Notes under the pieces: generated by a model
Seen by the model: the letters and a program-made list of their open reading frames with translations, nothing else
What the model was told of the DNA's origin: nothing
The model's database searches: none
Shown here: piece by piece, positions 4,054 to 4,703 of the stretch
Numbering within the stretch: position 1 is the first letter of the stretch
Layout of the letters: each line of letters opens with the position of its first letter
Position numbers and translations under genes: made by a program
Assembly (NCBI GenBank): GCA_028864975.1
Contig: JAGWLG010000012.1
Span: forward strand, 1-64,000
DNA: 64,000 nt
DNA from: Thermoplasmata archaeon
Lineage (GTDB): Archaea; Thermoplasmatota; Thermoplasmata; Lutacidiplasmatales; UBA184
Direction: 5' to 3'

Positions 4054-4126
4054 AGGGAGTTTGAAGCCTGGGGTTAGCGGATTCCTCGAGGAACTTCGTC
4101 GGCGAGGGGTTTCGCTCGACTATCGA

Positions 4127-4157
4127 CGCTCATCAACGAGCAGGTAGTTGATGAGCG
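4127..4157. other. Perfect 11-bp stem-loop between convergent transcription units
   Basis: CGCTCATCAAC / 9-nt loop / GTTGATGAGCG. There is no U-tract, so a terminator role is not established. Confidence 0.5.
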
Positions 4158-4196
4158 AGCAATACGAATAACGGCCAGCGTTTACGATAATCGTAA

Positions 4197-4305
4197 TGGG
4201 GCTGCCCGAATTTGAATCGGGGTCGCGTGGTCCCAAACCACGCAGGATGGACCATTGTAGCGTCACCAGGGGGAAGACCCCTGGACGAAACTACCCCACA
4301 GCCCC
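4197..4305 (-). tRNA. tRNA-Pro (UGG), intron-containing, CCA not encoded
   Basis: Acceptor GGGGCTG/CAGCCCC plus discriminator A. Anticodon arm CGTGG-TTTGGGA-CCACG. T arm CCCGA-TTCAAAT-TCGGG. Mature length is 75 nt after removing a 34-nt D-loop insert. Confidence 0.95.
4255..4288 (-). other. 34-nt tRNA intron in the D-loop (about position 17/17a)
   Basis: GTAG/CTAC 4-bp central helix, TTT and AAT bulges, intronic helices CGTC/GACG and CCAGGGG/CCCCTGG. Cutting after the second bulge nucleotide restores AGTTTGGTCCA. Confidence 0.85.
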
Positions 4306-4445
4306 ATGCCCATGCGGGCACCGCCGTCCGCCCTTGAACCTTCCCTGGACCTTGGCCCGCACCGACGTTGAGGGTGCTTCCCGAGCCCGGGCTTTCCACA
4401 CAAGCAGAACGCTTCTCTAGGACCCGATCATACCGAGAGACCAAC

Positions 4446-4703
4446 ATGGGTTCAGAAGAGCGGACGTCGCGAGACGAAGGGGACGGGCGCGGCGCGTTAG
4501 GTCGCCCAGAGGTCCTGGGTTCGTTCGAACACGCGGGGACCGGCACCGTCCACATCGTCATGACCGATCGTCGCACGCTGTGCGGCGCGCGGACGGGAGC
4601 GATGGACCTTCGGGGGAACGACGACTGGTACGTCCGAGAAGAAGATGCCCCGGTGAGTTGCCTTCGATGTCAGGGCCTTGCCCTCAAGAGCCCCCGGATC
4701 TGA
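4446..4703 (+). CDS. Small putative zinc-binding protein (H-x9-C...CxxC)
   Basis: TVHIV...TLCG...VSCLRC. ATG 4446 trimmed from ORF 4368..4703. Confidence 0.6.
   Translation: MGSEERTSRDEGDGRGALGRPEVLGSFEHAGTGTVHIVMTDRRTLCGARTGAMDLRGNDDWYVREEDAPVSCLRCQGLALKSPRI

Follow-up and report, generated by a model that had tools for sequence, protein, structure and literature searches.

A 109-nt pre-tRNA can be read on the minus strand at positions 4197–4305 of the window, that is, of the whole 64,000-nt stretch of DNA analysed from an uncultured Thermoplasmata archaeon. It has a 7-bp acceptor stem (GGGGCUG/CAGCCCC) with discriminator A, an anticodon loop UUUGGGA with UGG at 4233–4235 and a T arm CCCGA-UUCAAAU-UCGGG. 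Excision of 34 nt after nt 17 yields a 75-nt sequence which ARAGORN calls tRNA-Pro(tgg). Since the program accepts many neighbouring deletions as well, this call supports the identity of the tRNA and not the exact boundary. Removal of the insertion restores a canonical cloverleaf, as is the case for archaeal protein-spliced (BHB-type) tRNA introns. Introns of this type are cleaved by EndA, leaving 2′,3′-cyclic phosphate and 5′-OH ends, and the exons are then ligated by RtcB. The parts of the gene, in window coordinates, are the following.

4197–4305, minus strand: tRNA-Pro(UGG) gene, 109-nt precursor, no encoded CCA (covariance model R1, 116.8 bits)
4289–4305, minus strand: 5′ exon, tRNA nt 1–17 (acceptor 5′ strand, U8 G9, D-stem 5′ strand, A14 G15 U16 U17), from alignment to intronless orthologues
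4255–4288, minus strand: 34-nt intron, D-loop position 17/17a, precursor nt 18–51, absent in orthologues L021–L023, L029 and L030
4197–4254, minus strand: 3′ exon, 58 nt, precursor nt 52–109 (U17a G18 G19 to discriminator A73), nhmmer partial match to model positions 15–73
4233–4235, minus strand: anticodon UGG
4333–4342, minus strand: A/T-richer box AAGGTTCAAG at −37 to −28, with similar boxes at equal distance 5′ of ordinary tRNA genes

Most ordinary tRNA genes of the same genome have a comparable box at the matching distance upstream. The box AAGGTTCAAG is possibly a TATA-like promoter element, which would lend weak support to transcription of tRNA-Pro(UGG). A 147-aa open reading frame with a GTG start (4133–4576, minus strand) covers the full length of the tRNA gene in the same orientation.

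A sequence-only reading of this DNA had proposed a tRNA-Pro(UGG) whose D loop is interrupted after U17 by a 34-nt intron, and both the ARAGORN call on the spliced form and the intronless orthologues described below bear this out. It had also taken the host for a member of the Thermoplasmata, and the closest relatives of its splicing endonuclease are likewise encoded by Thermoplasmata archaeon MAGs.

The expectation that standard annotation would miss the gene was confirmed. ARAGORN in default mode reported no tRNA anywhere in the window. Rfam returned nothing over the window at the gathering threshold and nothing at E values up to 10 over positions 4100–4400; the failure of its tRNA model at this gene is due to the D-loop insert. 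With introns allowed, ARAGORN miscalled the locus as tRNA-Thr(GGT). In this mode the genome, with its 67% G+C, gave 110 calls, most of which have supposed introns hundreds to thousands of bases long; we regard them as artefacts, including the tRNA-Thr(GGT) reading of the locus. Two further intron-mode 'Pro(tgg)' calls, on contigs C59 and C64, were dismissed for want of a T arm at the right spacing. As the finders miss the gene, this organism and its relatives will seem, when annotated, to be without their sole decoder of CCA proline codons, and callers may annotate the overlapping 147-aa reading frame as a hypothetical protein instead.

Splice boundaries and splice motif

The locus was compared with 60 relatives by BLAST. 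Of the three further genomes of the genus, two matched over all 109 nt (95% identity), as did four other family genera (77–83% identity); in genus g3 and in family f3 the match was confined to the exons. The g3 and f3 orthologues are uninterrupted 75-nt tRNAs, which ARAGORN calls tRNA-Pro(tgg), and they read GGGGUAG(U/C)U|UGGUCC at the insertion site. The junction AGTT|TGGTCC predicted beforehand is thus matched exactly in intronless orthologues of a sister genus and a sister family. By this comparison the predicted intron boundary is fixed at tRNA position 17/17a. Because the intron and the 3′ exon both begin with U, cuts placed one base later would give an identical product.

The register adopted here is the one that fits all 24 sequences as well as the intronless forms. 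Two other placements were tried in the relatives and rejected. With a register one base later, the central helix of genus g6 becomes perfect but the intron-side helix shrinks to 1 bp. If the CUAC within CUCUAC of genera g4 and g5 is used, the 3′ cut directly abuts the helix, and one G of G18–G19 would be lost.

In four studies of mine drainage and soil, the DNA contigs contained the intron-bearing form, and an intronless allele was not found among them. Strain variants in the intron hairpin (runs X8 and X9, window 4255–4288) were seen in the mine-drainage and soil metagenome contigs. One short metagenome contig ends in CCGCUCUAC, as is characteristic of introns in genera g4 and g5, indicating that several intron-bearing relatives share those samples.

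In a canonical bulge–helix–bulge motif, the 4-bp central helix is formed by exon nt N−5 to N−2 and intron nt n−5 to n−2, each cut follows the second base of a 3-nt bulge, and the anticodon–intron pair lies at −3. The corresponding elements of the tRNA-Pro(UGG) precursor are listed here.

4291–4294, minus strand: central helix H, 5′ strand, G12 U13 A14 G15 (read from the sequence)
4257–4260, minus strand: central helix H, 3′ strand, intron CUAC, precursor nt 46–49 (read from the sequence)
4288–4290, minus strand: 5′ splice-site bulge UUU, precursor nt 16–18, inferred cut after nt 17 (motif geometry and intronless orthologues)
4254–4256, minus strand: 3′ splice-site AAU, precursor nt 50–52, inferred cut after nt 51, without an adjacent exon helix
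4261–4287, minus strand: intron-side helix h′ and a 7-bp hairpin (folds; compensatory changes in three of four h′ pairs)

Helix H consists of four perfect pairs (GUAG/CUAC: G12–C49, U13–A48, A14–U47 and G15–C46). Helix h′ pairs C19–G45, G20–C44, U21–A43 and C22–G42 and is continued by the 7-bp hairpin. The putative cuts after nt 17 and nt 51 are symmetric, each lying two bases beyond helix H. Folding of the precursor gave a z-score of −4.85. The minimum-energy folds favour a competing register, in which a helix of 5 bp and a 1-nt bulge take the place of the 4-bp helix and 3-nt bulge.

On the 3′ side the motif is incomplete. G11 is opposite G53 (G18) in the precursor, and the 3′ bulge A50–A51–U52 is therefore not closed as a 3-nt bulge. 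A strict hBHBh′ motif was rejected, as neither local nor whole-molecule folds offer an exon pairing that gives a helix h beside a 3-nt 3′ bulge. The local fold of nt 8–62 does predict an exon helix flush with H (U8–A58, G9–C57, G10–C56 and G11–U55; in tRNA numbering U8–A21, G9–C20b, G10–C20a and G11–U20), with a 5-nt bulge AAUGG. This helix is absent from the whole-precursor fold, and one relative (G019) carries A9, which disrupts one of its pairs. The exon letters that would form it barely vary.

The motif is accordingly of the relaxed HBh′ form, with helix H, an intact 3-nt 5′ bulge and helix h′. This form had been claimed from the sequence, and the perfect GUAG/CUAC helix, the 3-nt 5′ bulge and the covarying h′ uphold it. 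Of the two 3-nt bulges then described, the 5′ one (U16–U17–U18) stands and the 3′ one does not, G11 facing G53. The displaced exon helix of that description is recovered in the local fold, lengthened by one pair, and is not predicted in the fold of the whole molecule.

Conservation, age and related interrupted tRNA genes

Across 28 aligned sequences the exons are almost invariant, whereas the introns of 30–36 nt vary freely in sequence and length. The insertion site is shared with 24 relatives, with compensatory changes. In the structure described above 96.3% of cells are paired, compared with 32–48% in slid-partner controls, and changes on both sides were found for three of the four h′ pairs and for two pairs of the anticodon stem. 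Family f30 and genera g1 and g7 have a perfect central helix. In genera g4–g6 the intron strand reads CUCU, which leads to a G–U pair and a U–C mismatch; this applies to 19 of the 24 distinct sequences. An unpublished genome (G028) contributes one row each to the tRNA-Pro, EndA and tRNA-Arg comparisons and supports no claim on its own.

Within the family (f1) the intron occurs at the same site in genera g1, g4, g5, g6 and g7. In a tree of the EndA gene the family splits into (g2, g3, (g7, g1)) and (g5, g4, g6); this is a single-gene tree with SH-aLRT values of 88–99 at the relevant forks. The intron is present on both sides of this deepest split, and g3 is the only genus of the family groups in the tree that lacks it. 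In a search of 150 genomes from the class, covariance model R1 detected in family f30 a tRNA-Pro(UGG) with a 28-nt intron at the same site and the same GUAG/CUAC helix; most other families have genes of 73–75 nt. The distribution among families is patchy, with the intron in f30 but not in f2 or f3. As the intron is found in five genera spanning the deepest split, one gain and one loss explain its distribution in f1, and the simplest account of the compared sequences is probably a single gain before the family ancestor followed by one loss in g3. The suggestion that the intron had been gained recently is contradicted by the same-site introns in the five f1 genera and in f30. The intronless orthologues of the nested genus g3 would represent a clean case of intron loss.

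The locus appears to be needed. It is the only place in the whole genome (89.6% complete) where a UGG anticodon arm is found together with a correctly spaced T arm. Neither BLAST nor model R1 found a second tRNA-Pro(UGG) in this genome at 89.6% completeness, and elsewhere only the GGG and CGG isoacceptors are encoded. An intact tRNA-Pro(UGG) elsewhere, one part of the case named at the outset as speaking against a working gene, was not encountered at this completeness. CCA accounts for about 5 per 1000 codons in 950 long open reading frames, and the locus is apparently the only tRNA gene of this genome for CCA proline codons.

Introns at the same D-loop site are not restricted to this tRNA. 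Matches of model R1 of 105–109 nt turned out to be tRNA-Arg(GCG). In the genome under study this gene (locus L195, G000:C32:210148–210253, minus strand, outside the window) is interrupted at the same place in the D loop by an intron of 32 nt, which includes a CUAC helix strand, and its exon context is GGGGUAGCU...UGG as in tRNA-Pro(UGG). Intron-bearing orthologues of tRNA-Arg(GCG) are present in genera g2, g3 and g4. The tRNA-Pro(GGG) of family f19 (L181, G136:C66:10180–10297) carries a 43-nt intron, again at the same site. The D-loop site thus recurs in three tRNAs, Pro(UGG), Arg(GCG) and Pro(GGG), across the class. The bodies of the Pro and Arg introns of this genome are unlike beyond their constrained ends, which makes recent copying between them unlikely.

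Other tRNA genes of the genome also appear to be interrupted. An nhmmer profile built from its own ordinary tRNAs gave about eight partial matches that end at model position 58–60 and four more that begin at position 15–21, the tRNA-Pro(UGG) locus among them. Anticodons read from Rfam alignments indicate large D-loop insertions in tRNA-Lys(UUU) and tRNA-Leu(UAG) and disrupted T arms in tRNA-Asn(GUU), tRNA-Ala(GGC), tRNA-Gly(UCC) and tRNA-Lys(UUU); for tRNA-Asp(GUC) the Rfam alignments gave a partial match only. Together with Pro(UGG) and Arg(GCG), this brings the number of tRNA genes that appear to be interrupted elsewhere than in the anticodon loop to at least nine. The following loci of this genome (G000) were recognised with Rfam and nhmmer as putatively interrupted tRNA genes.

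C38:9218–9324
C32:63730–63845
C100:10345–10402
C97:90701–90758
C50:11378–11443
C119:61616–61673

The splicing endonuclease and the ligase

A whole-genome search revealed a sole EndA gene (G000:C53:49115–50236, minus strand, outside the window) encoding a protein of 374 aa, P0001. Pfam detects two PF02778 and two PF01974 stretches in the order N-C-N-C, and from this domain order P0001 is predicted to be an alpha′2-type EndA with two tandem units in one polypeptide. In its C-terminal unit the alignment with solved EndAs runs through their conserved catalytic core; in our reading of the alignment the matching catalytic places of the N-terminal unit read otherwise. Neither a separate gene for a beta subunit nor a three-unit chain was found in the search of the whole genome (89.6% complete). 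Exactly one EndA gene of this kind is present in 59 of 61 relatives, and family f30 likewise has a two-domain EndA gene. A gene for the RtcB ligase is present in the genome.

The best solved relative of P0001 is the fused Methanopyrus kandleri beta–alpha enzyme (5X89, E = 3e-34), ahead of the Archaeoglobus fulgidus alpha′2 enzyme (E = 2e-25), and the Thermoplasma acidophilum EndA aligns over the C-terminal unit only. Aligned with the Aeropyrum pernix alpha subunit (3P1Z_B), P0001 shows a gap of 9–10 residues at the crenarchaeal specific loop. A specific-loop insert (CSL/L1) with its conserved lysine is therefore absent from P0001 in the A. pernix alignment; the ARMAN enzyme 4FZ2 aligns over the C-domain only. 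The relaxed motif had suggested an (alpha-beta)2 or epsilon2 EndA with broad specificity. This is not supported in the 89.6% complete genome, whose sole EndA gene specifies a two-unit alpha′2 enzyme without the crenarchaeal specific loop.

Some further features of P0001 were noted. The structural unit has a full-length C-domain with a conserved LPRGG...KTPS..WV stretch. This C-domain is reduced in A. fulgidus, as judged by alignment, and in the Thermoplasma-like genome G054. The site that reads EKGDL in A. fulgidus is K-I-G-E-R in P0001, with the basic residues K233 and R237. The clade reads G-S-K/R-I/V-G-x-R at this site, and both basic residues are kept in nearly all of 30 sequences.

Interpretation and comparison with known systems

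We consider it very probable that the locus encodes a working tRNA-Pro(UGG) whose 34-nt protein-spliced intron is processed by the single alpha′2 EndA and RtcB, and that this intron is ancestral in the family and was lost in one genus. We infer the cutting and joining of the exons, and the enzymes responsible, from the sequence comparisons. In the precursor, the 4-bp central helix would arise from pairing of G12–G15 of the D arm with the intron CUAC. Between this helix and the stable intron hairpin, the 3-nt bulge UUU would contain the 5′ splice site. The 3′ splice site AA|U would be found beyond the opposite end of the helix, at a distance of two bases, within a bulge of 5 nt or a larger loop. 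Both sites would be cut by the alpha′2 EndA, presumably acting as a homodimer, and RtcB would join the exons, giving a tRNA of 75 nt with the same layout as the intronless orthologues. The intron would have been present in the family ancestor and lost in one genus.

That the gene is dead, or that the 34 nt are retained so that the mature tRNA has an extra D-loop arm, is highly improbable. In favour of it, no public RNA run containing the locus was found and standard finders reject the unspliced form. However, the exons are near-invariant between genera and the fast-evolving insert shows compensatory pairing, CCA codons are used and another tRNA-Pro(UGG) was not found in the 89.6% complete genome. 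Moreover, the splice geometry lies exactly where removal restores the orthologous intronless tRNA, and the insert sequesters G12–U13 of the D stem, which are needed in the mature tRNA. A different history, in which the intron was gained recently or repeatedly and independently by copying, for instance from tRNA-Arg(GCG) with which it shares the exon context GGGGUAGNU...UGG, seems unlikely, though less so. Copying would agree with the same-site introns of tRNA-Pro(GGG) in f19 and of tRNA-Arg(GCG) in every genus of the family that was examined, and with the patchy distribution, f30 having the intron and f2 and f3 lacking it. Introns have been reported to be copied between tRNA genes in Thermoproteales (PMC4090602). 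Against this stand the dissimilar Pro and Arg intron bodies of this genome and the five genera that span the deepest split of the family, by which a recent gain in this genome is excluded.

Such an intron does not fit the published specificity of splicing endonucleases. According to the literature, euryarchaeal alpha4 and alpha′2 EndAs cut canonical motifs only, and the introns of their hosts are single and lie at 37/38 (PMC4090602, PMC4033280). The cutting of non-canonical introns is attributed by Kaneta et al. to the (alpha-beta)2 and epsilon2 types only; in their work the A. fulgidus alpha′2 enzyme cut just the intact bulge of an HBh′ D-loop intron, and a D-loop HBh′ intron of M. kandleri is spliced in vivo (PMC5829648). 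Hirata et al. found that the wild-type A. fulgidus alpha′2 enzyme hardly cuts even a strict BHB in the D loop, and they put the specific loop in place of its EKGDL segment (PMC3241643). Here, a conserved and apparently essential HBh′ intron is kept in the D loop by a lineage with an alpha′2 enzyme only. A literature search, with many subscription papers outside its reach, yielded no paper on non-canonical tRNA introns in Thermoplasmata. The proviso that the intron position might already be catalogued as common in this class therefore holds in so far as the position is common in one Thermoplasmata family; a paper cataloguing it was not found in that search.

As a tentative explanation, to which we give appreciable weight but less than even chances, the alpha′2 EndA of this clade may cut relaxed D-loop introns without a specific loop or a second subunit. 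Its breadth might derive from the basic residues K233 and R237 at the place of insertion of the crenarchaeal loop, or from the full-length structural unit. On this view, position 17/17a would be one of several long-kept intron sites, with introns perhaps copied among Pro and Arg tRNA genes. It is rather unlikely, in our view, that a strict alpha′2 EndA suffices because the refolded exon helix U8–A21/G9–C20b/G10–C20a/G11–U20 creates a near-canonical 3′ bulge. The local fold of nt 8–62, which predicts this helix flush with H, is consistent with such refolding, and so are the lack of an insert at the specific-loop site of EndA and the canonical 5′ half of the motif in the host genus. The bulge would have 5 nt instead of 3, however, the helix is missing in the whole-molecule fold and A9 of G019 breaks one pair. 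Furthermore, tRNA-Arg(GCG) has an intron at the same site with different D-loop letters that make the helix impossible, and the poor cutting of even a strict D-loop BHB by the A. fulgidus alpha′2 enzyme (PMC3241643) also argues against it. If the clade's EndA does cut relaxed introns, the published rule that relaxed D-loop introns go with (alpha-beta)2 or epsilon2 enzymes bearing a loop would be broken. The family retains relaxed introns over long evolutionary time with a plain two-unit EndA only, and thus offers a natural pair of enzyme and substrate for probing what sets the substrate range of splicing endonucleases.

Among known introns, the D-loop intron that M. kandleri has in its pre-tRNA-Glu(UUC) at 20b/21 (Kaneta et al., 2018; PMC5829648) is likewise euryarchaeal and of the relaxed HBh′ form. 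Both precursors have an intact 5′ bulge, a central helix, an intron helix and a disrupted 3′ side, and the M. kandleri EndA is also without the specific loop. The two differ in position and tRNA, since the intron described here interrupts tRNA-Pro at 17/17a, whereas that of M. kandleri lies in a tRNA-Glu with a second, canonical intron. In addition, a single-chain alpha′2 enzyme is present here as opposed to a two-gene (alpha-beta)2 enzyme in M. kandleri, which has a single non-canonical intron, while the one at our locus is one among many in the genome. The intron of A. pernix pre-tRNA-Thr(UGU) (Hirata et al., 2011; PMC3241643) is located in the D loop too and is removed in vitro by EndA alone, but it has a strict BHB and its EndA is an (alpha-beta)2 enzyme with a crenarchaeal specific loop.

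With respect to the number of interrupted genes, the genome resembles those of Thermoproteales and Candidatus Micrarchaeum (ARMAN-2), which likewise have many D-arm and T-arm interruptions per genome (PMC4090602, PMC4033280, PMC3239211), some with relaxed motifs and with the same site recurring in different tRNAs. Their EndAs are of the (alpha-beta)2 or epsilon2 type with specific loops, in contrast to the predicted alpha′2 enzyme without one found here. With the alpha′2 enzymes of A. fulgidus (1R0V, 1RLV, 2GJW) and T. acidophilum (2OHC), P0001 shares the layout of one polypeptide with a structural N-unit and a catalytic C-unit; it differs from that of A. fulgidus in retaining a full-length C-domain of the structural unit and in having K-I-G-E-R in place of EKGDL.
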